DNA of 64,000 bases from Vulcanimicrobiota bacterium. GTDB taxonomy: Bacteria; Vulcanimicrobiota; Vulcanimicrobiia; Vulcanimicrobiales; Vulcanimicrobiaceae. The notes below the pieces were generated by a model, which had not been told where the DNA came from, searched no databases, and saw only the letters and a list, made by a program, of their open reading frames with translations. Made by a program: the position numbers and the translations under genes. The stretch is taken from NCBI GenBank assembly GCA_963812155.1, contig CAWETW010000002.1, positions 256,001 to 320,000 of the forward strand, read 5' to 3'. Positions 16,524 through 38,687 of the stretch are shown piece after piece; positions within the stretch are counted from its first letter, which is position 1; the number at the start of each line of letters is the position of its first letter.

Positions 16524-16616
16524 TGCGGTCCGCGCACGCGCGGCCCTGCCTTGGGCAGTCTGTTCCTAAACCTTGCTCAAGGAGCGAAGGTCAATGCAAA
16601 GCGAAGGTTTGCTTTC

Positions 16617-18014: not shown

Positions 18015-19157
18015 TTGACCGCGCTGCTTCTTGCGGCGGCGTTCGCACTGCCGGCCGCCGAACGAACGCAGATCGACGCCGTCGTCGCAAGCGTCACGCG
18101 CGAGCAGCACATCGCCGGCCTCTCGCTTGGAATCGCACGCAGCGGCAGACGGTTGTACCTGCGCGGATACGGATTGCGCGACGTCAATCGCGACCTGCCG
18201 GCCGATGGTTTCACCGTGTATCGCGCCGGCTCCATCGCTAAGCAGTTCACCGCCGCACTGGTCTTGCGCGCCGTAGAAGCTGGCCGAATGCACATGCCTG
18301 CGGTGGAGCATCTCCTGACCCAAACGAGCGGCGATTCCGGCGCATGGCATTACGACAACGCCAACTATGCGCAGCTCGGATTGATGCTGGAAGCCGCTTC
18401 CGGCCGCTCTTTTGAAAATCTGCTGCGGGAACGGATCACCGGCCCGCTGGGCTTGGAGTCGACGGGGTGCCGATTGCCGCCCTACGCCGGCAACGCCGCG
18501 CGCGGCTATGCATGGAACGGTTCGTGGACGGCTCTACAATCCGGCGACGACGTGCCGTGCAGTTCGGCCGGCCTAACGGCAAACGCGCCCGACCTCCTGG
18601 CTTGGCTGGAAGCGCTGCGCTCCGGAAGCATCGTCTCGGCGGCATCGTTCGCAGCAATGACGACGTCGGCGAGACTTCGCAGCGGGATCCCGGCGAACTA
18701 CGGATATGGTTTTTTCATCGCCGATTGGTTCGGATACACCGTTGCCGAGCATTCCGGGAACGTTCCCGGCTACTCGGCTCTCGACGCCGTCGTTCTGCGC
18801 GATGGCCTCGAAATCGCGGTCCTCACGAACGCCGACGCAGTAGACCTCACGCCCCTAGTCAAGAGTGTCGTCGCAGTCCTGGATCCGCCGCTCGATCGAA
18901 ATCTCGCAGCAACCGTCGGTGCGCCGCCGCAGAACGAGAATCTCGGCGTGACGGACGCGCTAAAAGCACTGCTGCAGACCTCCGGCTTCGCATCGTACGG
19001 AACGCTTGACGCCCTCGAGTTCGTCGAGCGTTCGGCCTCCGCCGCAACGACCTACGACAAGTATCGCGCCACCTTCTCGACCGGGCAATGGTGGGTGGTA
19101 TTAGGGTATCGTGCCGGCGATACGATCGTATCGCTCTCGCTCTCGCCGGTCCAATGA
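18015..19157 (+). CDS. Serine hydrolase, beta-lactamase/PBP-like family
   Basis: SxxK (SIAK), YxN (YDN) and HSG motifs; signal-like N-terminus. Confidence 0.8.
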   Translation: MTALLLAAAFALPAAERTQIDAVVASVTREQHIAGLSLGIARSGRRLYLRGYGLRDVNRDLPADGFTVYRAGSIAKQFTAALVLRAVEAGRMHMPAVEHLLTQTSGDSGAWHYDNANYAQLGLMLEAASGRSFENLLRERITGPLGLESTGCRLPPYAGNAARGYAWNGSWTALQSGDDVPCSSAGLTANAPDLLAWLEALRSGSIVSAASFAAMTTSARLRSGIPANYGYGFFIADWFGYTVAEHSGNVPGYSALDAVVLRDGLEIAVLTNADAVDLTPLVKSVVAVLDPPLDRNLAATVGAPPQNENLGVTDALKALLQTSGFASYGTLDALEFVERSASAATTYDKYRATFSTGQWWVVLGYRAGDTIVSLSLSPVQ

Positions 19158-20533
19158 AGCGGCTTGCGTCGGGCGCCGTCCTTGCCGCGTTGCTGGCGCT
19201 TTTGCTGCCCGCGCACGCGCGCGCCCAGGCGCTGGTCGTTCCGCTAACCGGGAAGCGCGTGCACGACGTCCAGCCGGACCGGTTTTTTCACACGCTCTTC
19301 TCCGACTTCTTTCCCGAAGACGACGCCACGACGTACGTCCAGACGGGAGACATTCCGGCGATGTGGCTGCGCGATTCGTCGGCGCAGACGATTCCCTACG
19401 TGCGCTTCCAAACGGCGTTCCCAATTCTGCGCGGGCGTTTCGCGGGGGTGATCGCGCGGAACGCGCGCAACATCGCCACCGATCCGTACGCGAACGCCTT
19501 TCAAGCCGACTACCACGTGTGGGAGCGCAAATGGGAAGTCGACTCGCTGGCGTGGCCGGTCGTGCTCACGTGGGTGTACTGGCGGCTCACGCGCGACGAA
19601 ACGATCTTCTCGCCGGAACTCCACGTCGCGATGCGGACCATCGTCGCGACCTACGCATGCGAGGAGCGCCATCGTCAGTGCAGCCGGTACGTCTATCCGT
19701 ATCGCGTCTCGACCAATAACGCGTACGCCGCCAACACGGGATTGATTTGGGGGGCATTCCGGCCGTCCGACGATGCGGTGCTCTATCGTTTCAACATTCC
19801 GCAAAACGCGCTAGCCGTCGTGGCGCTGCGCGAAATCCGGATGCTCGCGCTTCAAGGCTACGGCGACGGAGAGCTTTCTAACGCCGCGGGTTCGCTGAGC
19901 GACCGCGTGGAGAGTGGGATTCAGCGCTTCGGCCGCTTCTTCAACGTGAAGCGGCGCGCGTGGATGTACGCCTACGAAACCGACGGATACGGCCGCAACA
20001 ATCTCATGGACGACGCCAACCTCCCCAATCTCACGACGCTCCCGTACATCGATTGGTGCTCCGCGTTCGACCCCACGTATCTCAATACGCGCGCCTTTGC
20101 ATTGAGCTCCGACAATCCGTTCTTCTTCAAGGGACGTTACGCCGCAGGATTGGGCAGTCCACATACGCCGCCCAACTACGTGTGGCCGCTGGGCATCATC
20201 GGGCGCGCGCTGACGGCGACGGGTTCCGGCGAGGTTGCCGAAGCGATTACCACGCTGGCGGAAACCGATGGCGAGTCGGGCATGATTCACGAGAGTTTTT
20301 ACGACGACGGCTATTGGCGTTATACGCGCGCCGAGTTCGGCTGGGCCAACGCGCTCGGCGCCGACCTGTTCTTTCGAAGCCTCGGCGGATTTGCATCGAC
20401 GCAGTTCATGCCCGACGGGGCGGTGCTGCCCTTCCAGCGGCGTACCCCGACGCCGACGCTGGTGCCCGCGTACACGCAGTTGGAAAACGCGCGCAAGATC
20501 GTTCGCGCGCTCGGGCGCCTGCTCGAACGTTGA
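19154..20533 (+). CDS. Second GH125 glycoside hydrolase with signal peptide
   Basis: Same motifs as the first copy (TGDIPAMWLRDS, WERKWEVDSL, FRPSDD, MDDANLP, IHES); ATGA overlap with the upstream gene. Confidence 0.9.
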   Translation: MKRLASGAVLAALLALLLPAHARAQALVVPLTGKRVHDVQPDRFFHTLFSDFFPEDDATTYVQTGDIPAMWLRDSSAQTIPYVRFQTAFPILRGRFAGVIARNARNIATDPYANAFQADYHVWERKWEVDSLAWPVVLTWVYWRLTRDETIFSPELHVAMRTIVATYACEERHRQCSRYVYPYRVSTNNAYAANTGLIWGAFRPSDDAVLYRFNIPQNALAVVALREIRMLALQGYGDGELSNAAGSLSDRVESGIQRFGRFFNVKRRAWMYAYETDGYGRNNLMDDANLPNLTTLPYIDWCSAFDPTYLNTRAFALSSDNPFFFKGRYAAGLGSPHTPPNYVWPLGIIGRALTATGSGEVAEAITTLAETDGESGMIHESFYDDGYWRYTRAEFGWANALGADLFFRSLGGFASTQFMPDGAVLPFQRRTPTPTLVPAYTQLENARKIVRALGRLLER

Positions 20534-23809: not shown

Positions 23810-25285
23810 GTGTCTTCGCGCCGGCGGCTCGCGTGCGATTTGGCCGCGTTTCTCGTGCCGGCGATCGTATACGTCGCCAGCGCGTCGCACGAGCCGGCAT
23901 CGTGGGACACGGCCGAGTTGCAAGGCGTGCCCTACATCCTCGGCATCACGCACCCGACCGGTTTTCCGTTCTACGTGCTGCTCGGGTGGGTGTGGTCGCA
24001 CGCGATTCCGCTCGGCACGATCGCGTTCAGGCTGAACGTTTTTAGTGGGGTCGCGCTCGCCGCCGCCGCGGCCCTAGCGTACGCGTGCGCGCTGGAGTTA
24101 GGTGCGTGGCCCCCGGTCGCGCTCGCGGCGTCGCTGTGGTTTTCGTTTACGCAGAACGTGTGGTCGCACGGTGCGCGCGCCGAAGCGCAGGATTTGGCGG
24201 TCGCCTGCGAAGCGTTCGCGTTGTACGCATTCCTGCGATGGATGCGCGGACACGGCGATCGCTGGTTTTTGGCGGCATTTGCCGGCTTTGGTCTGGGCAT
24301 TGCAGCACATCCCAACGCGATTTGGCTGGCGCCGGGTCTCGCCGCCGGCGCAATCGTCGCGCGATCGCGTCCTACGGCCAGGCTTCTCGCCGGAGCGCTC
24401 GCGCTGACGGCCGCCGGATTGCTGCTGTACCTGTATCTTCCGTTACGTTCTGCATACGTCGTCGCGCACGGCCTCGACCCGGCGCACGTGCTGCCAGGCG
24501 CGGGCGGCGGAATCTTTTGGAACTATAACGACCCGAGCACTCCGGCCGGGTTCGTGCGGGCGTTGACCGGAACGGAGTCCGACGCGCCGCACTTCTTGCT
24601 GGCATCGCTCAATCCGTTGCACGCACAGGATGCGCTGTGGGCCTTCTTCTCGGCAATCGGCGAACAGTTCGGCGCCTTCGCGTTGATCGTCGTACTCGCC
24701 GGCGCCGTTTCGGCGTGGAAACGCGATTGGCGAACCACGCTGTTTCTCTGCATTGCGTGTACCGCCGCACTGCTGTTCTCGGTGACGTATCCAAACGAAG
24801 CCGACGTCGGACGTTACCGCATGCTCGCACTGTGGCTCGCGGTCCCGCTGCTCGGCGCGCTCGCGCCCTCCGGCGGCGCATCGGCGAGGAGTTCCTCGCT
24901 GCGCGCGCTCCTCGCCGCATTTCTCTGCGCGGGCGCGTTGATTTCGCTCGTGTCGCATCGCAGCTTCTTCACGCGTGCACCGCGCGAAGGCGGACGCTGG
25001 GTCATCGATGCCGTCCGCCCGTTCGTTCCGCCCGGTGGGGTGGTGGTCGTCGACGGCTGGATCGACGCAACGTCGCTGGCGTACGGCGCGTACGTCGACC
25101 AATCGCTTCCGGGACGAATCGTCGTCTCCGGTTGGGACCGCGCCGACATGGGAAACTACCGAGCCTGGGCGAGCGGACGGCCCGTTTTCGTTCTCACCGA
25201 TCCGCACGTCGAAGGGTCGCTCCCGGGTGCGACGCCGGCCGCGCGGCTGGATGCCTACCACGAGCTTTTCAAAGTCGAGCGATAG
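23810..25285 (+). CDS. DUF2723/TMEM260-like GT-C glycosyltransferase
   Basis: [18 protein letters not shown], many TM helices and YLYLPLR. Confidence 0.75.
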
Positions 25286-25290
25286 GAATC

Positions 25291-25356
25291 GTTTTGCAGC
25301 AGTGCAAAACCAACCATCCAACGATTGGATTTGACCCATCCAATGCACCGATCCAA
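25291..25356. promoter_or_regulatory. Putative operator/promoter region of aceA-aceB
   Basis: GTTTTGCA-N4-TGCAAAAC palindrome; ATCCAA repeats at 25316, 25338 and 25351, with inverted TTGGAT at 25325; TTGACC at 25331. Confidence 0.45.
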
Positions 25357-25413
25357 AGATCGTACCGGAGCCAGCCAATCTCCGAACGCTACACCGGAGG
25401 AGGAGCCAACGCC

Positions 25414-26716
25414 GTGAACGCCACCGAACGCGCCGAAGCCATCGCCCGCACGTGGAAAGAGCCACGTTGGAACGCGACTCGCCGTCACTACTCCGCCACC
25501 GACGTCGTGCGCTTGCAAGGCAGCGTCGTCGCCGAACATACCTTGGCGCGAATGGGCGCGCAACGGCTTTGGGATGGCCTTCACGGAAGCGCCGCGACGG
25601 CGGCACTCGGTACCCTCACCGGCAATCAAGCCGTGCAGGCGGCGCGCGCCGGGCTCGATGCGATTTACTGCAGCGGCTGGCAGGTGGCCGCCGACGCCAA
25701 CGTCGCAGGCGAGATGTACCCGGATCAAAGTCTCTATCCGGTCAACAGCGTGCCTTCGGTCGTCCGGCGCATCAACAACGCGCTCGCCCGGCTCGACCAA
25801 ATCGAGTCGCTCGACGGCAACGGCGGAGCGCATTGGTTTCTTCCGATCGTCGCCGACGCCGAAGCCGGATTCGGCGGACCGCTCAACGTCTTCGAACTCA
25901 TGAAAGCGATGATCGCAGCCGGCGCGGCCGGCGTGCACTTCGAAGACCAGTTGAGTTCCGAAAAGAAATGCGGCCATCTCGGCGGCAAAGTGCTGATCCC
26001 GACGCAGCAAGCCGTGCGTCACCTCGTCGCGGCGCGGCTCGCGGCCGACGTGCTCGACGTGCCGACGATCGTCATCGCGCGCACGGATGCAAGCGCCGCC
26101 AAGCTGATCACCAGCGACGTCGATCCGATCGATCGTGAGTTTCTGAACGGAGAACGCACGGCGGAGGGCTTTTTCGTCACGCGCCCGGGCATGGACGCGT
26201 GCATCGCCCGCGGCCTCGCCTACGCGCCCTACGCCGACCTCGTGTGGATGGAAACGTCCGAGCCGAGTCTGGAGGAGGCCGAACGCTTCGCCGCCGCGAT
26301 CCGCGCCAAGTTTCCGGGCAAGATGCTCGCGTACAACTGTTCGCCGTCGTTCAACTGGAAGAAAAAACTCGACGAACGGTCGATCGCGACGTTCCGCGAA
26401 CGGCTCAACGACATGGGGTACAAGTTCCAGTTCGTGACGCTGGCCGGCTTTCACGCACTCAACTACGGCTTTTTCACGCTGTCGCACGACTTCAAGACGC
26501 CGCGGCATGAGCGCGTACGCCGACTTCCAAGAGACGGAGTTCGCGGCCGGCGCCGACGGATACACCGCGACGCGCCATCAGCGCGAGGTCGGAACCGGAT
26601 ACTTCGACGAAGTCGCGACCGTCATCGGCGAGGGGCGCAGTTCGACCACCGCGCTCGCAGGGTCGACCGAAGCCGAACAGTTCTACGAAAACGGCAAAAG
26701 CGTTCACAGCGCGTGA
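25414..26716 (+). CDS. aceA: Isocitrate lyase (apparent +1 frameshift ~26500)
   Basis: [21 protein letters not shown], catalytic KKCGH and [11 protein letters not shown]-terminal [16 protein letters not shown] is in another frame. Strong SD GGAGGAGG before GTG. Confidence 0.95.
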
Positions 26717-28218
26717 ACTTCGCCCCGGCTGATTTTTCGCTCGACCGCGATTTGCCGAGCGGATTCGGCGATTTCTACCGTTCCCTGCACGCCCGCTTTA
26801 CGTCCGAGCAGCGCCGGCTCTCCGACGCACGCGCGCGCAGGCTGACGCGCGCGAATGCCGGCGAGCGGCCGCACTACTTACCGCCTTCGCGGGCCACGAC
26901 GTCGCCGTGGAGGATCGATCTCCCCGACTGGTGTCGCGACCAGCGCAATCAAATGACCGGGCCGGCCGACGATGCGGAACTCGTCGTAAAAATGCTCAAT
27001 TCCGGCGCACCCGGCGTGATGCTCGATCTCGAAGACTCGATGGCCAACACGTGGGAGCATCTGATGCTCGGCCACGCCAACATCGTTGCCGCGCTCTACG
27101 GCGACCTCTCGTATCGCGACGCCAAGCGCGATGCGACGGTACGAATTGCACCGAGCGCAACCGTCGTGTGGAATCGCGTGCGCGGTCTCCATCTCTCGCA
27201 AGCCGGCATCTTCCCGGGCGAAACGACGAGCGCGTCGCTCTTCGATCTCGCATTGCTCGCGTTCACCGTCGATTTCGAGCGCCTGAAACATCCGCTCTGC
27301 ATCTACATTCCGAAATCGGAGTCGGCCGAGGAGGCGCTCTGGTGGAAGGACGTGTTCGACGCGCTGCTGATTGCCAAGCGATGGCCGCCCGGCTCGATCC
27401 GCGCGATGGCGCTGGTCGAATCGCATCCGCTCGCCTATGAGATGGAAGAGTTCCTCTTCAACTTGCGCGACTACATCCTCGGGCTGAACTTCGGGCGTTG
27501 GGATTACATGGCCAGCCTGATTCACTACAACTTCACCGATCCGGATTGGGTGCTTCCCGATCGCAATACGATTCCGCTCGACGTGCCGTTTTTTCAGCGG
27601 CTGCGAACGATTCTTCCGGAAATCGCGCACACGCACGGCGCGCTCGCAATCGGCGGAATGACGGCGCTCTATCCAAGCCGCGAAGATCCCGAGCTCAACG
27701 CGCGCGCGCTGGCCGTTCTCGACCGCGACAAGAAAAACGAAGCCGCGTGTTTGATGGACGGCGCGTGGACCGGCCATCCGGATCAAAACGCCATCGCCGT
27801 CGCGGCGTTTCCGGCGCCCAACCAAATCGAGCGGCGTCCGGAACTCTCCAACCGCCATCCCGACCTGCGACCGGCGCCCGCCGGAGTCGGCACGACTACC
27901 CTCGACGGCACGCACGCCGCGATACGCACCGTGATTCGCTATCGCAACGGCGTGCTCGAAGGCAAAGGCGCGAGCCTGCTCGACGGTTACATGGAAGACC
28001 TCGCCACCGACCGCATCTACCGTCTGATGATCGCGCAGCGCCTGCGTTTTCCCGGCGCGTACACGCCGGCCTCGCTCCCCGCTGCATTCGACGAAGAACT
28101 CGACCGCATTCTGCGCGAGCTGGGCGCCGGCGCGCCGCCGGAAGCACGCGCGCGTTTTCGCGAGGCGCGCGACCGTTCCGAACGCATGATCGTGGAGGGC
28201 GCCTTCGACCCGGCGTGA
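26713..28218 (+). CDS. aceB: Malate synthase (short A-type-like)
   Basis: [41 protein letters not shown] and MEDLAT; GTGA overlap with the aceA stop. Confidence 0.88.
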
Positions 28219-28231
28219 AACGCCGCTTGCC

Positions 28232-29755
28232 GTGAACGAACACCGCAGCGTGCGCATTCCGCTGATCGCAGCGGCGTTGACGCTCGTCGCGCACCTCGCC
28301 GGCAATCCTCACTACGGATTTTTCCGCGACGAACTGTACTTCATCATCTGCGGATTCCACCCGGCGTGGGGCTACGTCGATCAGCCGCCCGTCGCACCGC
28401 TCTTGGCGGCCGGCTCGCAACTCTTCGGACAGTCGCTCTTCCTCTTACGGGCGGTCCCCGCGATCTTCGCGGCTGCCGGCGTGTACGTCGCCTGCCGGCT
28501 CGTCATCGAGATGGGCGGAGGCGCGTTCGCGCAGATCGTCGCCGCGCTCGCGGTGTTTTTCGCCAACGTGCTGATGTCGTTCGGCATGAAAGTCGGGCCG
28601 GACATGGTGGGGCTGTGGCTGTGGCCGCTGACGGCCCTCTACGTGCTGCGCATCGCCAAGGGCGCCGACCCGCGCTGGTGGCTGGCCGCGGGTGCGGCGC
28701 TGGGCGTGAGTCTCGAAAGCAAGTACAGCGCGGCATTCTTCGGCTTCGCGCTCGTCACCGGATTGCTGATTTCGCCGCAGCGGCGAATTCTTGCATCGCG
28801 CTGGTTCGTGGCAGGCGCGGCGGTTGCCGCGCTGATTGCGCTGCCGAACTTCCTGTGGCAGGCGCACTACGGTTTTCCGATGCTCGAACTGCTCCGCAAC
28901 GGACAGAACGGAAAGAACGTCGTCGCGGGACCCGTGCTCTATCTCGTGCAGCAGCTTCTGCTGACGAATCTGTTTCTTTCGCCGGTTTGGATCGTGGGGC
29001 TCGTCGCGCTGCTGGTACGGCCGGCGCCCGCGCGGTTTCTCGGATGGACCTACGTGGCGCTCATCGCGCTGATGATTCTCATGCACGGCAAGCACTATTA
29101 TCCCGGCGACGTGTATCCGATCGTCATCGCGGCCGGCGCCGTGGAGATTGCGGCATGGATTGGGCGCAGGCCGGCGCTGCAGGTTGCGCTTGCGGCCGTC
29201 ATGGTGGCGGCCGGACTCTTTTTCTTACCGTTTTCTTTGCCCGTGCTCTCGGAAGATTCGATGATGGCCTACGGTGGATTGGTCGGACGCGTGCTGCACG
29301 TGAACAAGTCGACGATGGCGACCGAACGCCATCAAAATGCCGATCTTCCCACCGACTGGGCCGACATGCACGGCTGGCCGGAACTCACCGCAACGGTGGC
29401 GCGGGTTTACGCCGCGCTGCCGCCCGGTCAACGCGGGCGCGCGGCCATCGTCGCGAGCAACTACGGCGAGGCGGCGGCGATCGATTTCTTCGGCAAGGCG
29501 TACGGCCTGCCGCCGGCGCTTTCGGGCCACAACAACTATTGGCTCTGGGGACCGCGCGGCTATACCGGCGACGTCGTCATCGACGTCAACGGCGACTGCG
29601 GCGCATCGGCGTATCTCTATCGCAGCGCGCGGCTCGCCGCGCGCTCCAATCCACCGTGGGTCATCTCCTACGAGCGCGACATTCCGATCATGGTTTGCAC
29701 GCGGCCGCAGAGCGATCTCCGCACGATCTGGCCCTCCCTCAAGAACTATATTTAA
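28232..29755 (+). CDS. GT-C glycosyltransferase family 39/ArnT-like membrane protein
   Basis: YGFFRDELY, WGYVDQPP, ~11 TM segments, NYGEAAA and SGHNNYW.WGP. Confidence 0.82.
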   Translation: MNEHRSVRIPLIAAALTLVAHLAGNPHYGFFRDELYFIICGFHPAWGYVDQPPVAPLLAAGSQLFGQSLFLLRAVPAIFAAAGVYVACRLVIEMGGGAFAQIVAALAVFFANVLMSFGMKVGPDMVGLWLWPLTALYVLRIAKGADPRWWLAAGAALGVSLESKYSAAFFGFALVTGLLISPQRRILASRWFVAGAAVAALIALPNFLWQAHYGFPMLELLRNGQNGKNVVAGPVLYLVQQLLLTNLFLSPVWIVGLVALLVRPAPARFLGWTYVALIALMILMHGKHYYPGDVYPIVIAAGAVEIAAWIGRRPALQVALAAVMVAAGLFFLPFSLPVLSEDSMMAYGGLVGRVLHVNKSTMATERHQNADLPTDWADMHGWPELTATVARVYAALPPGQRGRAAIVASNYGEAAAIDFFGKAYGLPPALSGHNNYWLWGPRGYTGDVVIDVNGDCGASAYLYRSARLAARSNPPWVISYERDIPIMVCTRPQSDLRTIWPSLKNYI

Positions 29756-29756
29756 A

Positions 29757-29856
29757 GGAAGCTCTGATTTTTTCCAAATCTAGGAACCGAGGGCCGACGT
29801 TTGCTACGGCAAATGAGGCCCGAGGTGACAACGAGTTGGGAAATATCAGAGCTTCC
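29757..29856 (+). repeat. ~100-nt structured palindromic element, copy 1
   Basis: Outer stem GGAAGCTCTGAT/ATCAGAGCTTCC; core nearly identical to 38248-38349; cTACGg loop. Confidence 0.85.
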
Positions 29857-31200
29857 CTAGTGGTCGTCGGGCGGCCGCAAGTCATCGCGCCGGTTCAGGA
29901 AGAACGCCGCCTTTTGCGGTGCGTCAATCGGCGCGAACGCGCGCGGCGGGTTCGCAAAGTCGAAGCAGTCCAGTGCCGGCGAGTTGGCGCGCGCATCGCT
30001 GGCCGCCAAGCGTCCCAAACCGAAAGCGTCTTCCGCGAACTTCAAAATGCTGCCGTGCTCGTAGCGAACGTGCGAAACGTAGCCGTGCTTTGCGTAAGGA
30101 GAAATCACGAGCAGCGGCACGCGAAAGCCGAGGCCGTCGTCGTCGACGTGCGGGGGCGTCACGTGATCGTAGAGCCCGCCCCAATCGTCCCACATGACGA
30201 AAATTGCGGTCGAACTCCAGAACCTCGACTCGCCGACGGCGTTCACCACGGCAGTCACCCACGACGGGCCGTAACCGCCGCCGCAGTTGGGATGATCCGA
30301 CGCTTCGCACGTGGGCGTGATCCACGTGACGTTCGCAAGCGTTCCGGCGGCGACGTCTTTGAGGAAGCGCTTCTGCGGCGTGACGACGTTCTTCCAATCC
30401 GGACCGTAGCGAATGTGCCGAACGGCCTGATACCCCGACCAAACGCCGTCGGCCGGATCGTCGATGCGGCTGCTGTAGAACCGCCAGGTGCGGCCGGCCG
30501 CATCGAGCTCGTCGCCCAACGTTTGGTAGTCGAAGCAGGGATGCTGAGGATTGCCGAACGCGCGATCCTTCTTCAGGGTTTCGACGAAGTTGTGCTTGTT
30601 TCCGCATCCCCAGTCGGGCAAGAACGGGATGTCGACGCTCGATTGCGCCTGCGCCGCGATGATGTATTGATGCGAGACGAAACTTTCGTCGAGATGCGAT
30701 TGGTGCATGTCGTCGGCGAGCACCCATTCGTTCGCCATGTCGAAATACGGCTTACTTTCGCGGTGCGGGACGTAGACGTACTCGCCGTCACGCGGACCGC
30801 CGAGCTGCCGTTCGCGATCGAATCCGTCCATGCGGCACTGCGTTCCCGGTACTTTGCCGGCTCCGTCGCACGCCGCGAACATGGCTGCGGCCGAATGATC
30901 GATGTCGTACTGCGTCTTCAAACTCATCGGCCGCAGCGCAATGGATTTTCCGGTCGAGCTCTTTCCGGTGGCGACCGTGTTGGCGCCCGGATAGCCTTGA
31001 AAGAGATTGTCGAAGCTCCGGTTCTCCTGCACGACGATGACGACGTGCGCAATTTTGTCTACCGGCCGCCCGTTGCGGGCAACTGCCGGTTCGACGCCGC
31101 TTCCGGTCGCTGCACGCGGGCCGTACGCGCACGCCGCCAGCGCGAGCGCCGCGAACGCGGCGACCGCTCGGAAGCGACGGCGGTAAAAAACCGGCGGCAT
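29857..31200 (-). CDS. Phosphoesterase/phospholipase C family lipoprotein
   Basis: Lipobox [31 protein letters not shown] and GFRVP..ISPY. Confidence 0.88.
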
Positions 31201-31214
31201 GGCGCGCTCTGATT

Positions 31215-32102
31215 TTATTCCGGCAGTCCCAGCGCCTGCAGCAGTCGCGGATAGACGAGGCCGGTGCGCGCGAGCGGATTTTGCGGATCCACGATGTCGT
31301 GGTTGATTGGGAGCCCGCGCAACTCGATGTAGTCGACGCCGCCGGGAATCCAGCCTTGCCACTCGCGCACGATCGCTTCGGTCACCTCGTTGTTCACCGC
31401 CGGATCGCTGTGGTTGACTACCGTCACGATGCGTCCGGCGCGCGGTGCTTGCCGGCGCGCCGCCGCGTAGACGTCGTCGCCAACCGCGAGCGTCTGCGCG
31501 AGCGCTCGCGTCGAGTACCGCGGGTACGCCGTGACCGGGCGATGGTGCTCGCGGTCGCGTGGGTCCCACCACAGGAAAAAGTTCGGCAGCGTCGCGAGCA
31601 CGCGAGCCGCGAGTTTGCTTGCCGGATACGGCAGCTCGAGCAGCGCGAAGCTTGGAGCGACCGGCACCGCGAGATCGACCGCGCGGAACGCAGCCGCATG
31701 GGCGGCGAGTACGCCGCCCATCGAGATGCCGAGAACCGCGACGCGTTCGCCTAACCCCGCGGCGGCGTCGAGCGCGCCGGCAACCGCGTGCAGCAACGCC
31801 GTCGCCTTCAGTTCGGCGATCGACGCCGTCATCCGGTCGCGAGCGCCGTGTTCGGGCATGCGCGGAACGAAGACGTTTGCGCCGCGCGCGAAAATCAGCG
31901 GAGCGAGTTCTGCGTATTGCGCGGGATTGTTCGTAAATCCGTGCAGCGGCACGACGGCAAGCGGCACGCGCCGTCCGTGTTCCAACAGCAGGGTCTTTGC
32001 AGCGGGAAGAATCTCCTCGCCGTCGAGCGCCATGACGGCACGCGCGCGCGCAATGCCTTCCGCGTACGTCTGCGCCGGATCGGCGGCTGGAAATGCGACC
32101 AC
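31215..32102 (-). CDS. Alpha/beta hydrolase (start uncertain, 32102-32150)
   Basis: LHGFTN, PRMPEHG, GISMGG nucleophile elbow and C-terminal NHDIVDP. Confidence 0.8.
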
Positions 32103-32143
32103 GCGGGGGCGTTGGCGCGCCCGCGCGAATCGACCTTTCGACC

Positions 32144-32710
32144 ATGGCACGACGAATCACGCCCAACCTACGGTGCTCGTGGGCGACGAGCGAACTTTCG
32201 ATTCCCTATCACGACCGCGAGTGGGGCCGCCCGGTTCACGACGACCGGCGGCTCTTCGAGATGTTGACGCTCGAGGGCGCGCAGGCAGGGTTGAGTTGGG
32301 AAACGATCTTGCGCAAACGCGAGCGGTACCGTCGCGTCTTCCACGATTTCGATCCTGCGCGAGTTGCAAGAATGCGGCCTGCCTCGGTGGAGCGTATTCT
32401 CGGCGACCCTGGCGTCGTGCGCAATCGCGCTAAGATCGAATCGGTCGTTTCTAATGCGAAGGCATTCGTCGCAGTGCAACGCGAATTCGGCTCGTTCGAT
32501 GCATTTATCTGGCAGTTCACCGGCGGCAAGCCGCGCGCCGAAACGCGCCGCAGCCGGGACGAGTTACCTGCGGCGACTCCGCAGTCGGAAGCCATGAGCG
32601 CGGCCTTGCGCGCACGCGGCTTTCGGTTCGTCGGGCCGACGATCTGTTACGCGTTCATGCAAGCCGTCGGCATGGTGAACGACCACCTCACGACGTGTCC
32701 GTGGCGGTAG
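32144..32710 (+). CDS. tag: DNA-3-methyladenine glycosylase I
   Basis: [51 protein letters not shown]. Confidence 0.95.
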
Positions 32711-33566
32711 CAGCCCCAGCCACGGGATCGATCGCCGACAAAATTTCCGGATAGACGCGATCCGCGAGCCCTCCGCGGCGCAGCGGTTCGATGATGTCGT
32801 GCGACAACGGCAGGCCCCCGAGCGCGCGCACCTCGACGCAGCCCGGCCGATGCGCTTGCCAGCGCGCGTACAGCCGCCGGATCGCGCGGTTGTTCACGCC
32901 GGACTCGCGCGCGTTGACGACGAGCACGGCGTGCCGAGCCAACGGCTCGCCGGCTGCCGCTTCGTCCAGCACGGTGCGCGCCACGCGATACGCGTGTGCG
33001 AGCGCGTGCGTCGAGTAGCGCGGATAGCCGTGCTCGGGCATCTGGCGCTCGCGCACGATTGGATCCCACCAGTGGAAGCGGTTGGGAACGTGCAGCAGCA
33101 ATTCGGCGAGCGCCGTCATCAGTCGCGCCGGAATCCATGCCACGCCGAGGAACGGCGCGATCGCCACGCAACGGTCGATCTCGTAATGCTGCGCGCTCCA
33201 TGCGGCCAGCAAACCGCCCAGCGAGAAGCCCGCAATCGTCACCCGGTCGCCGAGTTCGCGCGCGATGGAGACGTAATCGCCGGCGGCGACGTAGAGTTCG
33301 TCGGGGCGCAGACGGGCCAGCGCCGTCGACAGACGATCGGCGTGACCGTGATGCGGTAAGCGTGGAACGAGGACGTTGTGTCCGCGCGCGTAGAGATCGC
33401 GCGCATACCGATCGAACTGTGCCGGACTCGAGCTCATGCCGTGCAGCAACACGACCGCACGCGGCCGGCGCCCTTCATGCAGGTGCGCGATGGTGCGGCC
33501 TTTTTCGCCGACGCGAGCATGATCGCGGGCCAAGAGCCGGTCGAGACTCGTCCAAGAGGTTCCCAA
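32688..33566 (-). CDS. Alpha/beta hydrolase, paralog of 31215-32102 (start uncertain)
   Basis: LHGMSS, PRLPHHG, GFSLGG, WWDP..YPRYST and SHDIIEP. Confidence 0.8.
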   Translation of the reverse strand: MGTSWTSLDRLLARDHARVGEKGRTIAHLHEGRRPRAVVLLHGMSSSPAQFDRYARDLYARGHNVLVPRLPHHGHADRLSTALARLRPDELYVAAGDYVSIARELGDRVTIAGFSLGGLLAAWSAQHYEIDRCVAIAPFLGVAWIPARLMTALAELLLHVPNRFHWWDPIVRERQMPEHGYPRYSTHALAHAYRVARTVLDEAAAGEPLARHAVLVVNARESGVNNRAIRRLYARWQAHRPGCVEVRALGGLPLSHDIIEPLRRGGLADRVYPEILSAIDPVAGAATATDTS

Positions 33567-33676
33567 GGGATGCGTCCTTAAGTCAGCCCGTGAAGTGTTC
33601 CTCGAACGCGGGCCGGCTGCGCCCCCGCGGTCCCGCTCCTCGAGCGGTAAACACACGCGGCGCTTTGTGGAATTCG

Positions 33677-34888
33677 ATGCCGATACTTTCGGAACGCGCC
33701 CGCGATCTCGTCGCCGCCGAAGAACGCTACGGCGCTCACAACTATCATCCGCTCGACCTCATCGTCGATCGCGCGGAGGGCGTGTGGTTATGGGACGTCG
33801 ACGGAAAGAAGTACCTCGACTGCATCAGCGCCTACTCCGCGGTCAATCAGGGACATTGCCATCCGCGCATCGCGGCGGCGCTGCTGGAACAATCGAAAAA
33901 AGTCACGCTGACGTCGCGCGCGATGCGCAACGACCGGATGCCGGGATTTCTCGAGAAACTGACGCGCGTCTGCGGATTCGAGATGGCCCTTCCGACGAAC
34001 ACCGGCGTCGAGGCGGTCGAAACCGGCATCAAGCTCGCGCGCCGCTGGGGATATGAGGTCAAAGGCATTCGGGAAAACGCCGCTGAGATCGTCGTGTTCT
34101 CCGACAACTTCCACGGGCGCACGATATCGGCGATCAGCGCAAGTTCGACGCCGGAGTATCGCAAGGATTTCGGACCGTTCGTTCCAGGTTTCGTATGCGT
34201 TCCGTTCGGCGACGCCGACGCTCTCGAGCGAGCGCTGACGCCCGAAACCTGCGCTATTCTGATCGAGCCGATTCAAGGCGAAGGCGGCGTCAACGTCCCG
34301 CCCGACGGATACCTCAAGCGCGCGTGGGCGCTCTGCCGCGAACATCGCGCGCTCTTCATTGCCGACGAGATTCAGACCGGATTCGGCCGCACGGGCGACT
34401 TGTTCGCGTGCGACTACGACGGCATCAAACCCGACGTACTGCTCGTCGGCAAAGCGCTGGGCGGCGGCTACTATCCCGTCTCCGCAACGCTCGCCGATGC
34501 TTCGCTGATGCGGTTGTTTCGTCCGGGCGAGCACGGCAGCACCTTCGGCGGCAATCCGCTCGGATGCGCCGTCGCCGAAGCCGCACTCGACGTGCTCGTC
34601 GACGAGAACCTCGCGTCGCGCGCGCGCTACGCCGGCGCGAAGATCATGCAGGGTCTGCGCGCGATCGGTTCGCCGCTCGTCACGGAGCTTCGCGGGCGCG
34701 GGCTGCTGATCGGCATCCAACTGACCGTTCCGGCACGCCGGGTGTCCGAAGCGCTGCTCGAGCGCGGCGTCGCCGCGAAAGATACGCACGAGATGGTGCT
34801 GCGAATCGCGCCGCCACTGGTGATCGACGACGCGGCAATCGATTACTTCCTCGAACGGTTCCGCGACGCCATCAAAAGCGTCGCGTAA
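33677..34888 (+). CDS. rocD: Ornithine--oxo-acid aminotransferase
   Basis: GAHNYHPL, SAYSAVNQGHCHP, FHGRT, EPIQGEGG, DEIQTG.GRTG, GKALGGG and HGSTFGGNP. Confidence 0.93.
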   Translation: MPILSERARDLVAAEERYGAHNYHPLDLIVDRAEGVWLWDVDGKKYLDCISAYSAVNQGHCHPRIAAALLEQSKKVTLTSRAMRNDRMPGFLEKLTRVCGFEMALPTNTGVEAVETGIKLARRWGYEVKGIRENAAEIVVFSDNFHGRTISAISASSTPEYRKDFGPFVPGFVCVPFGDADALERALTPETCAILIEPIQGEGGVNVPPDGYLKRAWALCREHRALFIADEIQTGFGRTGDLFACDYDGIKPDVLLVGKALGGGYYPVSATLADASLMRLFRPGEHGSTFGGNPLGCAVAEAALDVLVDENLASRARYAGAKIMQGLRAIGSPLVTELRGRGLLIGIQLTVPARRVSEALLERGVAAKDTHEMVLRIAPPLVIDDAAIDYFLERFRDAIKSVA

Positions 34889-34899
34889 TCTCGGGCCCG

Positions 34900-36765
34900 C
34901 TACTTCGACAGCGGAGCGATCACCTCCGACAGGCGATCCGGCGTGCCGTCGATTCGAACGAGATGCGGATAGCGCGGTCCGCCACCGTATGCAATCGAGA
35001 TCGTGCGGTAGACGTCGCCGTGCTGCACGAGCAGCGCAATCGGCTGCTGATTGCGAGAGGCCGCCTCAAGTGCGTCGTACAGCAAATCGCTCGAATAACT
35101 GCGGCCGTTGACGGCGACGAGTTTCGTATCGATGCCTAAGCTCGCATTCCACGCCGGCGAACCCGCGCGCACGTCCGCGACGGTACCGGCAGTCGCGGAG
35201 AAACCGAGCGAATACCAAAAATTGTCTTTATGCACCCAGTGCGAGGGTTGGTTGGTGTAGACGAGCCGCCACCCGTCTGCAGTGAATCCATCGGGCGGAT
35301 GAATCGCGATCTCGTCGATCCACGTGCGGAAGAATGCGTTCCAGTCGTAGGGGACGATCGCGTTGAGTGCGGCGACGACGTCGGGCCGATCGTAGGTTAC
35401 GACCGACGGACCGGTATCGTTGCCCCCGAAGAAGGCTCGCGCAAGCGTGTCGAGCGACTCGCGATCGCCGGTCTGCGCGCGAACGATCGAGTCGGCCTTC
35501 AGCCACATGAGTTCCGACTCTGAATAAAAGTCCGCGCCGCGGCGCTCGGCGCCGTATCCGCGCGGCGCCAAATAGATAAACGGTCCGGACACGGCCGTGT
35601 CGCCGAGCGTGCGCCAACGACGCCCCGGCTGATTGTCGTACGATGCATAAACGGCGGCGATGTGATCGGGATACGTGTAAGGTTTGCGAATCCCGTCGCG
35701 CCACGACATCACGTTGCCGTAGTACTGCGTCATCCCTTCGTAGACCCACAGCAGCGAGTCGTCGTAGGGCAGCTGCAAGTTCGATTGATAGAGACCGGCG
35801 GGCATGCGGTACTTGCCGTCCCACGAATGATTGAACTCGTGCGATAAGAGATCGGCGCCCCGGTCGAGCGATTCCGGATTGGTGAGATAGTCGCCGCCCG
35901 CGCCGTCGTCGCTCGATTCGTGATGCTCGATGCCCTCGCCGGGCATCGCATCGGAGAGGGTGAGCAGGAAGTTGTAATTGCGCCAATGGCGCGCGCCGTA
36001 CATTGCCAGCATTTCGCGCACGAGTTTTGCGTACGCTCCGACGGTGGCGGGCGGCACGGCGAGTTCCTCGGGCGTGTCCGCAAAGGCGTTGAGATACGCC
36101 GCCGCGCCGCCGTCGTTCCACAACAGCCATCGCTTGTAGTTCACGCCGGCGTCGAGCGGTGAATCGATCAAATGCTCGAGCGAGACGTCGTCGAAAGACA
36201 CGAAGTTCCCGTTGCGCCGCGCTCCCGTCAACGCGGTTGCGAACTGCCAGTCTTCGGCGGGCAGCAGAATCGACGGTTTGAAGAGGCTGTTCGAGATCGT
36301 GCCGGTCGACGGATAGAGCAAGTTTTGGTGCCACGTCATGACGAGCATGTTGGGCGTCGCGAGCCGGGCCGTCGAATAGCGGCCGAACGTCGCGCCGATG
36401 TATGCCGCCGCCACCTCAATTGACGACGCGCCGGCCGGAACGTCGACGTCGAAGGCGTAGAGGTCGCGCGGCTCGCGATGCCATACGAGCGGCGCACCGT
36501 TGGCGGAGATCGTCAAGCCGACGAAATTGGCGATCGGACCGGCCGGCATGTGCTCCCCGGGAATCCATTGCGGATAGTAGAGGACGAGCTTTCCGGGCGA
36601 AACCGGGATCGTTTCGCGGGTGAACACGACGTTTTGGGACGGAGCCTTGGATGCGTCGACCTGGAGAACGATCGGCGTTTCGGCGCGGGCGATCCCGCAG
36701 CACGCGACGGAAAAAACCAGGGCCGCGACGCCGGCGAGCCCGTGGCACGACCTTCGACCCGGCAT
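34900..36765 (-). CDS. M61 glycyl aminopeptidase with C-terminal PDZ, secreted
   Basis: Signal peptide, YPQWIPGEH, GIEH, HEFNH zinc motif, WVYEGMTQY and GSPA PDZ. Confidence 0.9.
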   Translation of the reverse strand: MPGRRSCHGLAGVAALVFSVACCGIARAETPIVLQVDASKAPSQNVVFTRETIPVSPGKLVLYYPQWIPGEHMPAGPIANFVGLTISANGAPLVWHREPRDLYAFDVDVPAGASSIEVAAAYIGATFGRYSTARLATPNMLVMTWHQNLLYPSTGTISNSLFKPSILLPAEDWQFATALTGARRNGNFVSFDDVSLEHLIDSPLDAGVNYKRWLLWNDGGAAAYLNAFADTPEELAVPPATVGAYAKLVREMLAMYGARHWRNYNFLLTLSDAMPGEGIEHHESSDDGAGGDYLTNPESLDRGADLLSHEFNHSWDGKYRMPAGLYQSNLQLPYDDSLLWVYEGMTQYYGNVMSWRDGIRKPYTYPDHIAAVYASYDNQPGRRWRTLGDTAVSGPFIYLAPRGYGAERRGADFYSESELMWLKADSIVRAQTGDRESLDTLARAFFGGNDTGPSVVTYDRPDVVAALNAIVPYDWNAFFRTWIDEIAIHPPDGFTADGWRLVYTNQPSHWVHKDNFWYSLGFSATAGTVADVRAGSPAWNASLGIDTKLVAVNGRSYSSDLLYDALEAASRNQQPIALLVQHGDVYRTISIAYGGGPRYPHLVRIDGTPDRLSEVIAPLSK

Positions 36766-36788
36766 GCAGCCGTCATATAAGAAGCGCC

Positions 36789-36819
36789 TTGACATTCCCC
36801 CTGCCGCCCGTGATATGCT
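36789..36819 (+). promoter_or_regulatory. Putative sigma70 promoter of the infC operon
   Basis: TTGACA at 36789 and extended -10 TGATATGCT at 36811-36819. The spacer (19 nt) is long. Confidence 0.5.
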
Positions 36820-36828
36820 CGGCGGGCC

Positions 36829-36956
36829 GAAGAAGCGACCCCAGGCTGCGAAGCTTGCGAACGCTCACCGGATGCCTGCGGGCGATCCGGTCTTCACTCG
36901 AGGAGCCGTCGGCCGGTTCCGCACGGTGGGGCTGCTCCGGCGGCGCCATTTTTTTC
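36829..36956 (+). ncRNA. Probable L20 leader (ribosomal-protein autoregulatory attenuator)
   Basis: Lies 5' of infC-rpmI-rplT. Shows an AGAAGC..CTCACC pattern, hairpin ACCGGAT..ATCCGGT, and a terminator stem 36926-36949 plus T7. The 5' CCCCA can pair with the terminator's TGGGG. Confidence 0.65.
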
Positions 36957-36975
36957 TTTCTGGGGTTTTTGGGGA

Positions 36976-37056
36976 CCCGCGAAGCGGGGGCGCGCAGCGC
37001 GAAGCGCGGAGCGCTTTCAAACTTAAGGGGCCCCCAAAGAACGAAGTTTTTTGGGG
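36976..37056. repeat. Cluster of three REP-like hairpins with cGAAg loops
   Basis: CCCGC-GAA-GCGGG; GCGC[GCA]GCGC-GAA-GCGC[GGA]GCGC; CCCCAAAGAAC-GAA-GTTTTTTGGGG. Confidence 0.6.
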
Positions 37057-37079
37057 AGATATTTTTTGGGAGAGACGTC

Positions 37080-37667
37080 ATAGCACGACCGCTCCGCGTC
37101 AACGATCAGATTCGCATTCGATCGGTTCGGGTGATCGACGAAAACGGCGAACAACTGGGAATCTTGCCGACTGAAGACGCGCTCGCGCGCGCCCGCACGG
37201 CCGGCCTCGACCTCATCGAAGTTTCGCCGACGGCGCAGCCGCCCGTATGCAAGATCGCAGACTACGGCCGGCTCAAGTACGAGCAGTCCAAAAAAGACAA
37301 GGACGCTCGTAAGAAACAACGCCACTTCGAATTGAAAGAAGTCAAGTTGCGTCCGAAAATCGAGACGCACGACTACGAGACGAAGGCGCGCATGGCCGAG
37401 CGGTTGCTGATCGACGGCAGCAAGATCAAGGTAACGATCATGTTTCGCGGACGAGAGATCACGTACGCGTCGTTCGGGCGGCGGCTGCTCGATCGAATGG
37501 CCGAAGACATGATACCGCTGGCCACGATCGAGCGCGAGCCGAGACTCGAAGGAAGAAACATGTTCATGATTTTGGCGCCCCGTGCTACGCCGACCGGTCC
37601 GCCGAAATTCAGCCACACCGCACCAAAATTGGAGGAAAGCACCAGTGCCCAAAATTCGAACGCATAG
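37080..37667 (+). CDS. infC: Translation initiation factor IF-3 (ATA start)
   Basis: LRVNDQIR, GLDLIEVSP..PPVCKIADYG, KEVKLRP and FRGRE. GGGAG SD is followed by an in-frame ATA. Confidence 0.95.
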   Translation: MARPLRVNDQIRIRSVRVIDENGEQLGILPTEDALARARTAGLDLIEVSPTAQPPVCKIADYGRLKYEQSKKDKDARKKQRHFELKEVKLRPKIETHDYETKARMAERLLIDGSKIKVTIMFRGREITYASFGRRLLDRMAEDMIPLATIEREPRLEGRNMFMILAPRATPTGPPKFSHTAPKLEESTSAQNSNA

Positions 37668-37851
37668 AGGTACCGCCAAGCGCGTCAAAGTGAGCGCGAC
37701 GGGCAAGGTGCAGCATCGCCACCAATTCAGCGGCTGCGGCCATATCCTGAGCAAGAAGACCCGCAAGCGCAAGCGCAAATTCCGCAAGGATCAGCCGGTT
37801 TTCAAAGGCGACCTCAAGCGCCTGGCCCCCACGATTCCGTACTTGGTCTAG
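37645..37851 (+). CDS. rpmI: 50S ribosomal protein L35
   Basis: MPKIRTHRGTAKR..ATGK..H.LSKK; GGAGG SD. Confidence 0.95.
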   Translation: MPKIRTHRGTAKRVKVSATGKVQHRHQFSGCGHILSKKTRKRKRKFRKDQPVFKGDLKRLAPTIPYLV

Positions 37852-37869
37852 CGAGGAGAACACCGAACG

Positions 37870-38229
37870 ATGGCACGCATCAAGCGCGGGGTCCACGGCC
37901 TCAAGCACCGCCGCAAAGTCATGAAGCTCGTCAAGGGCTTCCGCGCGGCTCGTGGACGCAACTACCGGGTCGCCAACGAGGCGCTTCTCAAATCGCTCGC
38001 ATATGCGTTTCGCGACCGTCGCGTTCGCAAGCGCGACTTCCGTTCGCTATGGATCAGCCGCATCAACGCAGCCGTACGCCGCGAAGGGCTTTCCTATTCG
38101 GTCTTCATGAACGGATTGAAAAAATCGGGCGTCAGTTTAAATCGCAAAGCGTTAGCCGAACTCGCAATTTCGGATAACGCGGCGTTCGGCTCGCTCATGA
38201 ACATCGCCAAACAAGCCGTCCGCAAATAG
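37870..38229 (+). CDS. rplT: 50S ribosomal protein L20
   Basis: MARIKRG, YAFRDRR.RKRDFR.LWI.RINAA and NRK.LAELA. Confidence 0.98.
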   Translation: MARIKRGVHGLKHRRKVMKLVKGFRAARGRNYRVANEALLKSLAYAFRDRRVRKRDFRSLWISRINAAVRREGLSYSVFMNGLKKSGVSLNRKALAELAISDNAAFGSLMNIAKQAVRK

Positions 38230-38247
38230 AATAAATCTTCGAAGTAT

Positions 38248-38349
38248 ATAAGGCTTCCGGTTTTTCCGAATCTAGGAAGCGAGGGCCGAAGTTTGCTACG
38301 GCAAATGAGGCCCGAGCTGACAACGAGTCGGGAAAATCGGGAGCCTTAT
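38248..38349 (+). repeat. ~100-nt structured palindromic element, copy 2
   Basis: 25-position outer stem with three G-T pairs and one A/G mismatch; core shared with 29757-29856. Confidence 0.85.
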
Positions 38350-38615
38350 TCTTCGCCTTCGGCTAAGCGGCGGCCAGTCGCTTCCACCACCTTGCCGAGC
38401 ATCGTGACGGCTTCGGCGCGTGTGGTATTGCTGAACATGTAGCGCAGGCGTTCGTCGGCATCTTCGACGATCAGCACCGCGCGGCGGCCGGAACGCACGG
38501 AATCAATGAGCGAGTTCAAGTAGGCTTCGTCTTCGGGAGCCAGCGACGACGCTTCGGAATCGCGCGCGTCGAGTAGGCGTTTGAGGACGGCGTCGATATC
38601 GCTCGGTATTTCCAC
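38346..38615 (-). CDS. Small hypothetical protein (~89 aa)
   Basis: GGAGG SD before GTG 38615; fills the gap with protein-like composition. Confidence 0.6.
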   Translation of the reverse strand: MEIPSDIDAVLKRLLDARDSEASSLAPEDEAYLNSLIDSVRSGRRAVLIVEDADERLRYMFSNTTRAEAVTMLGKVVEATGRRLAEGEE

Positions 38616-38687
38616 GGCTGCCTCCAAGACCAAAAACCCCCGCGTCCGTATGACCGGTGCGCGAGCCGTTCGGGAGACTACGATGCG

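Follow-up and report, generated by a model that had tools for sequence, protein, structure and literature searches.

The repetitive intergenic consensus of enterobacteria (ERIC), together with IRU and RU-1, is the described type of repeat with which the element reported here is to be compared first: a gene-less hairpin of ~100 nt that occurs twice in the DNA stretch of 64,000 nucleotides analysed in this work (G000:C2:256001-320000, called the window below), taken from the genome G000 of a Vulcanimicrobiota bacterium. This source genome comprises 2.96 Mb with 64% G+C and is 84% complete. The phylum Vulcanimicrobiota is also called Eremiobacterota, and the host is a soil bacterium. Among named records, those nearest to its rplT come mainly from Vulcanimicrobiota, Baltobacteraceae and Ca. 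Cybelea included.

ERIC has been known since about 1990, and an orientation-dependent effect of it on mRNA decay is reported in reviews (PMC2759123; PMC2229807); in the reviews consulted neither a mobiliser nor a binding partner is identified. For repetitive extragenic palindromes (REPs) located no more than 15 nt from a stop codon, ribosome stalling is described (PMC12306157). Insertion sequences (ISs) of the IS5 family use YTAR as the target that is duplicated on insertion (PMC5009759).

The repeat of the window is a dispersed gene-less family of ~100 nt. Its members are regarded here, with more confidence than doubt, as non-autonomous miniature transposable elements of the inverted-repeat type (MITEs) with IS5-type arms and an ERIC-like core that is probably selected on one strand. 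The assignment to non-autonomous MITEs is the most likely one since IS5-family elements in relatives have ends that the outer arms match. As a repeat family it is ordinary, being one more MITE behind stop codons, and it is the centre that stands out.

Copies in the Window and Size of the Family

Copy 1 occupies 29757..29856 of the + strand as a 100-nt rod hairpin (117 bits with R1, a covariance model built from 24 copies of G000), and copy 2 lies at 38248..38349 of the same strand (102 nt, 115 bits with R1). The original prediction had described them, from the letters alone, as a hairpin motif of ~100 nt repeated twice. Both hairpins are real, but the motif is not a two-copy one, as R1 gave 28 matches in G000 which correspond to 25 distinct places and 3 second matches on the opposite strand, and a hidden Markov model added 4 remnants with the 3' half only, two of them weak (E 0.07 and 0.12). 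The two copies share 93% identity over a common 75-nt stretch, and the compensatory base changes listed between them were confirmed in the sequence. Each copy with short flanks folds into one rod (z = -9.25 and -9.33), and 0 of 200 shuffles fold as well. The + strand, proposed at the start as the favoured one, indeed folds better than the - strand in both copies, either as RNA (-59.1 vs -46.8 kcal/mol for copy 1 and -67.1 vs -46.2 kcal/mol for copy 2) or as DNA (-29.0 vs -23.5 and -28.2 vs -21.5 kcal/mol, respectively).

In copy 1 the conserved core extends over 29776..29837 (+) and includes loop A, formed by 29781-29785 with 29827-29832 and followed by a 10-bp stem, loop B, formed by 29796-29798 with 29815-29816, and a 6-bp terminal stem with the terminal loop at 29805-29808, all on the + strand. 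The core of copy 2 is located at 38268..38329 (+) and scores 80.9 bits with R2, a core-only covariance model of 62 positions made from 68 Vulcanimicrobiota rows.

The covariance-model search suggested by the original prediction thus yielded further copies with strong covariation in the genome and in relatives: R1 matches 14 of the 15 genomes of the genus and 33 of the 61 family genomes tested, the number of copies being between 1 and at least 63 (the tally includes G078, flagged unpublished, with 2 matches). The core-only model R2 matches 57 of 71 genomes of the host family and both genomes of the sister family; in other families of the phylum it was found in 4/17 genomes of f6, 2/14 of f20, and 0/9 of f3, and it gave zero matches in the 13 remaining sampled families. 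Five single genomes of other phyla contained no match. BLAST of copy 1 against plasmids and phages gave none either, and BLAST of f6 variants against plasmids returned one 38-nt piece for one variant and nothing for another. A search of Rfam 15 in gathering and E-value modes found nothing on the element, and in the open-access literature searched neither the family nor the shared core was found described; the supplements of the non-coding atlas bioRxiv 10.64898/2026.10.21.760802 and of large MITE surveys could list the family.

Acido-Lenti-1 and Flavo-1 are multi-copy hairpin motifs with purine-rich internal loops. Both were considered and rejected as relatives, RF01687 and RF01705 giving no match above cut-off in five genomes and none with E <= 1 in G000. 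Rfam ribozyme families did not match the element. Tandem arrays of the element were also seen, with 7 units at ~96-nt spacing in G011 (L254:2194-2858), 5 units in G028 (C18:195225-195670), and 3 units in G277 (C1:1430681-1430964).

Terminal Arms and Insertion Sequences

The DUF772 transposase domain is present in 35 of the 201 family genomes searched. Among 30 DUF772 loci examined, 11 have an end that consists of YTAR followed by sequence like the element's arm, with both ends seen as a pair in L421 and L432. The cut-off of the IS5 family (NCBIfam NF033581) is passed by four of these transposases. The arms match the IS5 ends over ~16 nt. When a matrix was made of eight IS ends, 8 of the top 10, 15 of the top 20, and 19 of the top 30 sites of G000 fell inside copies, which make up 0.1% of the genome.

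In copy 1 both arms are IS5-type terminal inverted repeats, as judged by alignment with IS5-family ends of relatives: the left one (29757..29772, +) is rank 6 among all G000 sites with the matrix derived from IS ends only, and the right one (29841..29856, -) is rank 19. Directly outside the right arm stands CTAG, a YTAR-type target (29857..29860, +), which includes the TAG with which a phosphoesterase gene of the - strand ends; on the left the arm is preceded by TTAA (29752-29755, holding the upstream gene's TAA stop) and a single A, and the two flanks therefore form no exact target duplication. The arms of copy 2 have drifted from the IS5-type consensus with their pairing still complete, and this copy is absent from the top 45 IS-end matrix sites of G000. 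IS5-like arms are a property of copy 1 and many other copies, not of copy 2.

The element thus resembles IS5-derived MITEs in its ~16-nt arms, in the YTAR outside the right arm of copy 1, and in the existence of arms-only derivatives, and differs from them in the strong orientation bias and in the conserved folded core of its interior, which was not found in the IS5 loci searched. Neither the 30 DUF772 loci nor the 6+1 PF01609 loci gave a core match, and among 49 transposase loci there were only two core matches, weak ones (E 0.03-0.04), both in Y1 loci.

The same core is found between other ends. In family f6 it occurs within near-identical 158-160-nt units flanked by CTAG, which stands on both sides in many, not all, of the young copies. 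The ends of these units agree with those of IS1182-family elements from f1 in 12 nt, the target included, and a matching IS1182-type IS was not found in f6 itself. Unpaired f6 ends were also followed up as possible full ISs; they led to truncated MITEs or contig ends.

Some other transposable elements were examined and set aside. The two IS110 elements of G000, read by eye, showed no link to the element, and the single PF01609 elements of G000 and G016 have different ends. In one complete 3.5-Mb genome (G062, L415) ~24 identical-scoring DUF772 transposase copies occur with a single copy of the core. An IS110-family gene between tRNA-like sequences in G000 (L038, G000:C1:502147-505395) appears to mark a small island at a tRNA cluster.

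Conserved Structure and Covariation

In the 24 full copies of G000, 29 of 37 pairs vary on both sides and 91.8% of the alignment cells are paired, vs 76.7% in shuffled alignments and at most 47.8% in slid ones. For the core alone, 19 of 22 pairs vary on both sides and 88.8% of cells are paired vs 67.6%. A wider set of 101 distinct copies was obtained from 113 model matches after removal of 12 second matches on the opposite strand. In this set loop A (5x6 nt) keeps its central G=C in 100 copies and its G·A in 94, and its inner pair is A·G in 62, C·A in 35, and another combination in 4 copies; in the sheared form A·G is isosteric with C·A. Loop B (3x2 nt) retains G·A in 100/101 copies. On the favoured strand the 101 copies have 236 G·U against 40 A·C cells; for the distal outer stem the corresponding counts are 41 and 21, a mild bias. 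These data indicate that the core is probably kept by selection on one strand, as a three-dimensional structure.

Two features that the original prediction took for invariant did not prove to be so across the family. The terminal loop is of UNCG type in only 39 of 101 copies, TATG in 18, and varied in the others, and Watson-Crick pairs often take the place of the middle tandem GA.

In a kink-turn, by definition, tandem G·A comes after a bulge of 3 nt, and position 1n is invariably A. Loop A was not accepted as one, being 5x6 nt in size and having C at the 1n-type position in 37 of 101 copies. A signal-recognition-particle-like reading of loop A was considered and dropped.

The Core beyond the Phylum and Its Relation to ERIC

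The R2 model matches 28 of 151 sampled genomes of Pseudomonadota (the phylum of a Ferrigenium record) and none of 121 sampled genomes from the phylum of a Clostridium record. Most of the Pseudomonadota matches are rod hairpins with other terminal arms, beside housekeeping genes; at least two of them (L394 and L395) appear false. In the 31 best matches the G·A of loop B is present in 31/31, and for the inner pair of loop A 18 matches have C·A and 8 have A·G.

In 7 kb of the Escherichia coli K-12 genome the best R2 match fell in the aceF-lpd spacer, and the centre of the repeat located there agrees by eye with the ERIC consensus of Table 1a in PMC2759123. When 13 ERIC copies of K-12 with flanks (40 kb) were searched, the R2 top ten were all on ERIC, and 12 of the 13 copies were matched on the better-folding strand. 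The likeness comprises a gene-less rod hairpin of similar size, shared with IRU and RU-1, an intergenic location, one strand that folds better, an identical arrangement of a 6-bp terminal stem with a G·A loop and a G·U pair closing it, and an outer loop with central G=C and, in full-length K-12 copies, a C·A pair. The differences are the length (127 nt vs 100 nt), the terminal repeats, and the phylum. On this comparison of sequences and predicted folds the element shares the ERIC centre, at low scores, and would work like ERIC, without being an ERIC member by sequence. The earlier statement that it could not be assigned to a known family has accordingly to be revised for the centre, which matches the ERIC/IRU centre in structure.

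At L376:1592-1715 (-), next to a core-bearing repeat, Rfam V_AS5 gave a match of 54.5 bits, below its cut-off of 96; this family has the look of a repeat of the ERIC type and not of a specific antisense RNA. The Rickettsia RPE and Yersinia YPAL repeats may share the core as well.

Genomic Position and Polarity

According to gene calls made with our own open reading frame (ORF) caller, 17 of the 24 full copies in G000 are between convergent genes, 4 are tandem sense, 3 tandem antisense, and 0 divergent, whereas among all 2761 gene pairs 449 are convergent. On the favoured strand, the 3' end lies -3 to +5 nt from the opposite-strand stop in 14/20 cases, and the 5' end is at the sense stop in 5/21 (Fisher p = 0.005). 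By a rough gene-end finder that missed many genes, the 3' end was at a stop in 11/12 and the 5' end in 0/11 cases in G069, where 20 copies out of at least 63 were inspected, and in 35/55 and 8/38 cases, respectively, for 77 other copies including those of G000. Copies were found behind tuf, groEL, rpoD, and rplT. A link to leading or lagging strand was tried with local G+C skew and was unconvincing (16/24 copies on the G-poor strand). No transposase or nuclease family was detected among the neighbouring ORFs scanned against Pfam.

Both copies of the window conform to this arrangement, and their placement just behind a + strand gene at a convergent junction, with copy 2 over the stop codon of its neighbour, was correctly described in the original prediction. 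Copy 1 almost exactly fills the gap between two convergent stops, those of a PMT_2 family glycosyltransferase gene upstream (28232..29755, +) and of a phosphoesterase family gene (29857..31200, -, start from the ORF caller; stop codon 29857-29859). Copy 2 lies 19 nt behind rplT, the gene for ribosomal protein L20 (37870..38229, +), and the stop (38346-38348) of a short convergent ORF from the same caller (38346..38633, -) falls in its last bases.

The core also occurs without IS5-type arms and in sense orientation in spacers of stable RNA genes. One such core is in the 16S-23S spacer of G000 (C1:247379-247441, L033), and G079 has a core at the same place; ARAGORN detected no tRNA gene in the spacer at L033 and L063. 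The tRNA-Leu/tRNA-Gly spacer (G000 C1:131962-132097) has one full and one partial core, sense and arm-less, and a core is found in this spacer of G007 too (L253).

Orthologous Sites and Decay of Copies

Sites of the element in three relatives were compared with G000, 37 in total (23 of G001, 11 of G007, and 3 of G006), which are most but not all of the G001 and G007 matches and few of those of G006. In G000, 19 of them are filled in the same orientation (one being arms-only in G001), 2 are flipped, 15 have no core, and 1 is not syntenic; for the 15 core-less sites gain was not polarised against loss. At the rplT junction G001 is as G000 and G007 has the element inverted, with different arms in each, and the other 11 genus members having rplT have no element there. 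The more distant rplT rows include G048 (flagged unpublished), which carries no claim.

Two arms-only units of 26-27 nt without a core were found at G000:C1:253435-253461 and C1:11845-11870, and G007 has a full copy (L251) at the site of the former. Retroposition was first suggested by 5'-truncated copies and was given up after full copies were found at the orthologous site for 2 of 4 of them; because of these full copies in relatives the truncated ones are more likely decay products. Among old copies there are thus inversions between the arms, losses of the core, and losses of the 5' half.

A shorter second hairpin repeat, apparently a CGTC-type REP, fills G000 junctions where relatives carry the element, as if the two were mutually replacing; these are the sites orthologous to L223, L224, L226, L231, L241, and L244.

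Proposed Origin and Alternative Explanations

The most probable course of events begins with an IS5-family DDE transposase, which would have copied the element in trans into YTAR sites. Such sites would be rare at 64% G+C and would often coincide with TAA or TAG stops, and insertions between convergent genes would be tolerated. Subsequent recombination between the arms would rewrite both in step and would account for part of the outer-stem covariation. The core may be a defined three-dimensional structure recognised by a host factor. Its likeliest form of action, by analogy with ERIC, would be that of an RNA lying 3'-terminally in the transcript of the upstream gene, with an effect on decay or termination; such action in the 3' untranslated region (UTR) is a best guess, and a role as 3'-UTR stabiliser or protein-binding RNA is possible. 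The strong-folding strand may be counter-selected directly behind a stop codon, which would yield the observed polarity, for which the ERIC effect on mRNA decay and the ribosome stalling by REPs would be a precedent by analogy.

Several results weigh against this explanation. Concerning the arms, the IS-end match is only partly independent, since the ends were first located with an element-derived matrix; YTAR is present in 8/24 left and 8/24 right flanks in G000 with no exact duplication, and stop codons confound this count. An arm-matching IS5 transposase was found in only 1 of the 15 genus genomes (G003) and not in G000, G001, or G007, which have 14-31 matches each. The arms drift until copies such as copy 2 lose the likeness to IS ends, and the empty sites have no clean insertion point, several of them resembling deletion or replacement by another repeat. 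Concerning polarity, a DDE transposase with symmetric ends alone leaves it unexplained; of the tandem copies of G000, 4 are sense and 3 antisense, and the core behind tuf, seen in four genera, is antisense in three, so that the core is often not on the operon mRNA strand. Such tandem-gene copies in both orientations weaken a purely mRNA-level role. Concerning the core, 131 G·U cells out of 236 come from three columns, and the structure counts overstate the number of events, since related genomes are not independent. With respect to ERIC, the top-ten scores are weak (13-25 bits, best E 1.9e-5), some alignments take the nearer ERIC loop instead of loop A, and the two motifs stand further apart in ERIC, whose longer spacer contains additional internal loops; moreover, a strict-filter R2 search of the whole K-12 chromosome missed ERIC, and BLAST of K-12 ERIC in G000 gave 0 matches.

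Among the alternatives the one that survives best is that the core serves the element itself as a recognition structure, in single-stranded DNA or element RNA, for copying or insertion with a fixed polarity, the IS ends being secondary. It would account for the strong polarity at stop codons together with both orientations in tandem contexts, for the same core within elements with unrelated ends, for the better folding of the + strand as DNA too, and for the lack of a matching transposase in copy-rich genomes. An enzyme for it was searched for without success: the linked RAYT/TnpA or reverse transcriptase gene that the original prediction had suggested looking for did not turn up, neither Y1 transposase nor reverse transcriptase being found in G000, and no transposase or nuclease family was among the neighbouring ORFs scanned. 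With core-less, arms-only units in existence and no core found in DUF772 and PF01609 transposase loci, this possibility is rather unlikely.

It is less probable still that the fold is functionless, its arms being kept complementary by template switching and gene conversion inside a long hairpin, around a centre that is inherited baggage. The flips and central deletions at orthologous sites, the ready loss of copies, and the mild strand bias of the distal outer stem are what such repair would leave, but it gives Watson-Crick pairs on both strands and not the switch from A·G to C·A, and the near-invariant G=C and G·A of the loops (100/101 each), their fixed spacing, and the same loops in Pseudomonadota and ERIC stay unexplained by it.

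A further idea, of quite low probability, is that the core originated as a host RNA signal for processing or stability of stable-RNA and housekeeping transcripts and was later picked up by MITEs. The arm-less sense cores in the 16S-23S and tRNA-Leu/tRNA-Gly spacers and the copies behind tuf, groEL, rpoD, and rplT suit it; on the other hand, 14 of 71 family genomes have no match, the number of copies differs widely (1 to at least 63), the majority of sites lack conservation, and the tuf copies are antisense in three genera.

That the element is a REP or REPIN moved by a RAYT (Y1) transposase is hardly credible: it is an extragenic hairpin behind stops and enriched between convergent genes, but it is not a short palindrome or REP doublet, it has IS5-type ends, and Y1 transposase is present in 7 of 151 family genomes and was found in neither G000 nor G016. 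The element is like REP, BIME, and REPIN sequences, the GTAG- and CGTC-tagged repeats of PMC3733652, in its position behind stops and between convergent genes, and several of the same G000 junctions have a repeat when the element is absent that is labelled CGTC-like after that paper; the element differs by its much longer single rod, by its IS-type ends, and by having no RAYT. The original suggestion of a structure-selected mobile repeat, REP- or MITE-like, is thus upheld on the MITE side by the many copies, the strong covariation, the presence and absence at orthologous sites, and the IS5-type ends, and is given up on the REP side, the element not being a GTAG-type REP and Y1 transposase not found in G000.

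A broader proposal is put forward only tentatively and is doubtful at present: the two-loop structure of sheared purine pairs, interchangeable as isosteres, may be ancient and common, across phyla, to ERIC, to MITEs with IS5-type, IS1182-type, and other ends, and, in the absence of IS-type arms, to rRNA and tRNA spacers, and may be the site bound by a conserved host protein that works at the 3' ends of genes and sets the stop-codon polarity. If it is true, ERIC would be one case of a general recognition system. The core in a distant phylum, within elements that have other ends, with covarying non-canonical pairs indicates which nucleotides to mutate and provides a bait for a partner, and the stop-codon polarity is a second feature that is directly testable.

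Other Features of the Window

Fusions of isocitrate lyase and malate synthase are known mainly from nematodes and Euglena. A single 1193-aa ORF with domains of both enzymes, that is, a fused glyoxylate-shunt enzyme, is located at 24637-28218 (+) of the window. Two paralogues of GH125 alpha-mannosidase lie 2.5 kb apart at 15903-18005 and 19088-20533 (+), with ~72% DNA identity over stretches and a beta-lactamase-fold gene between them.

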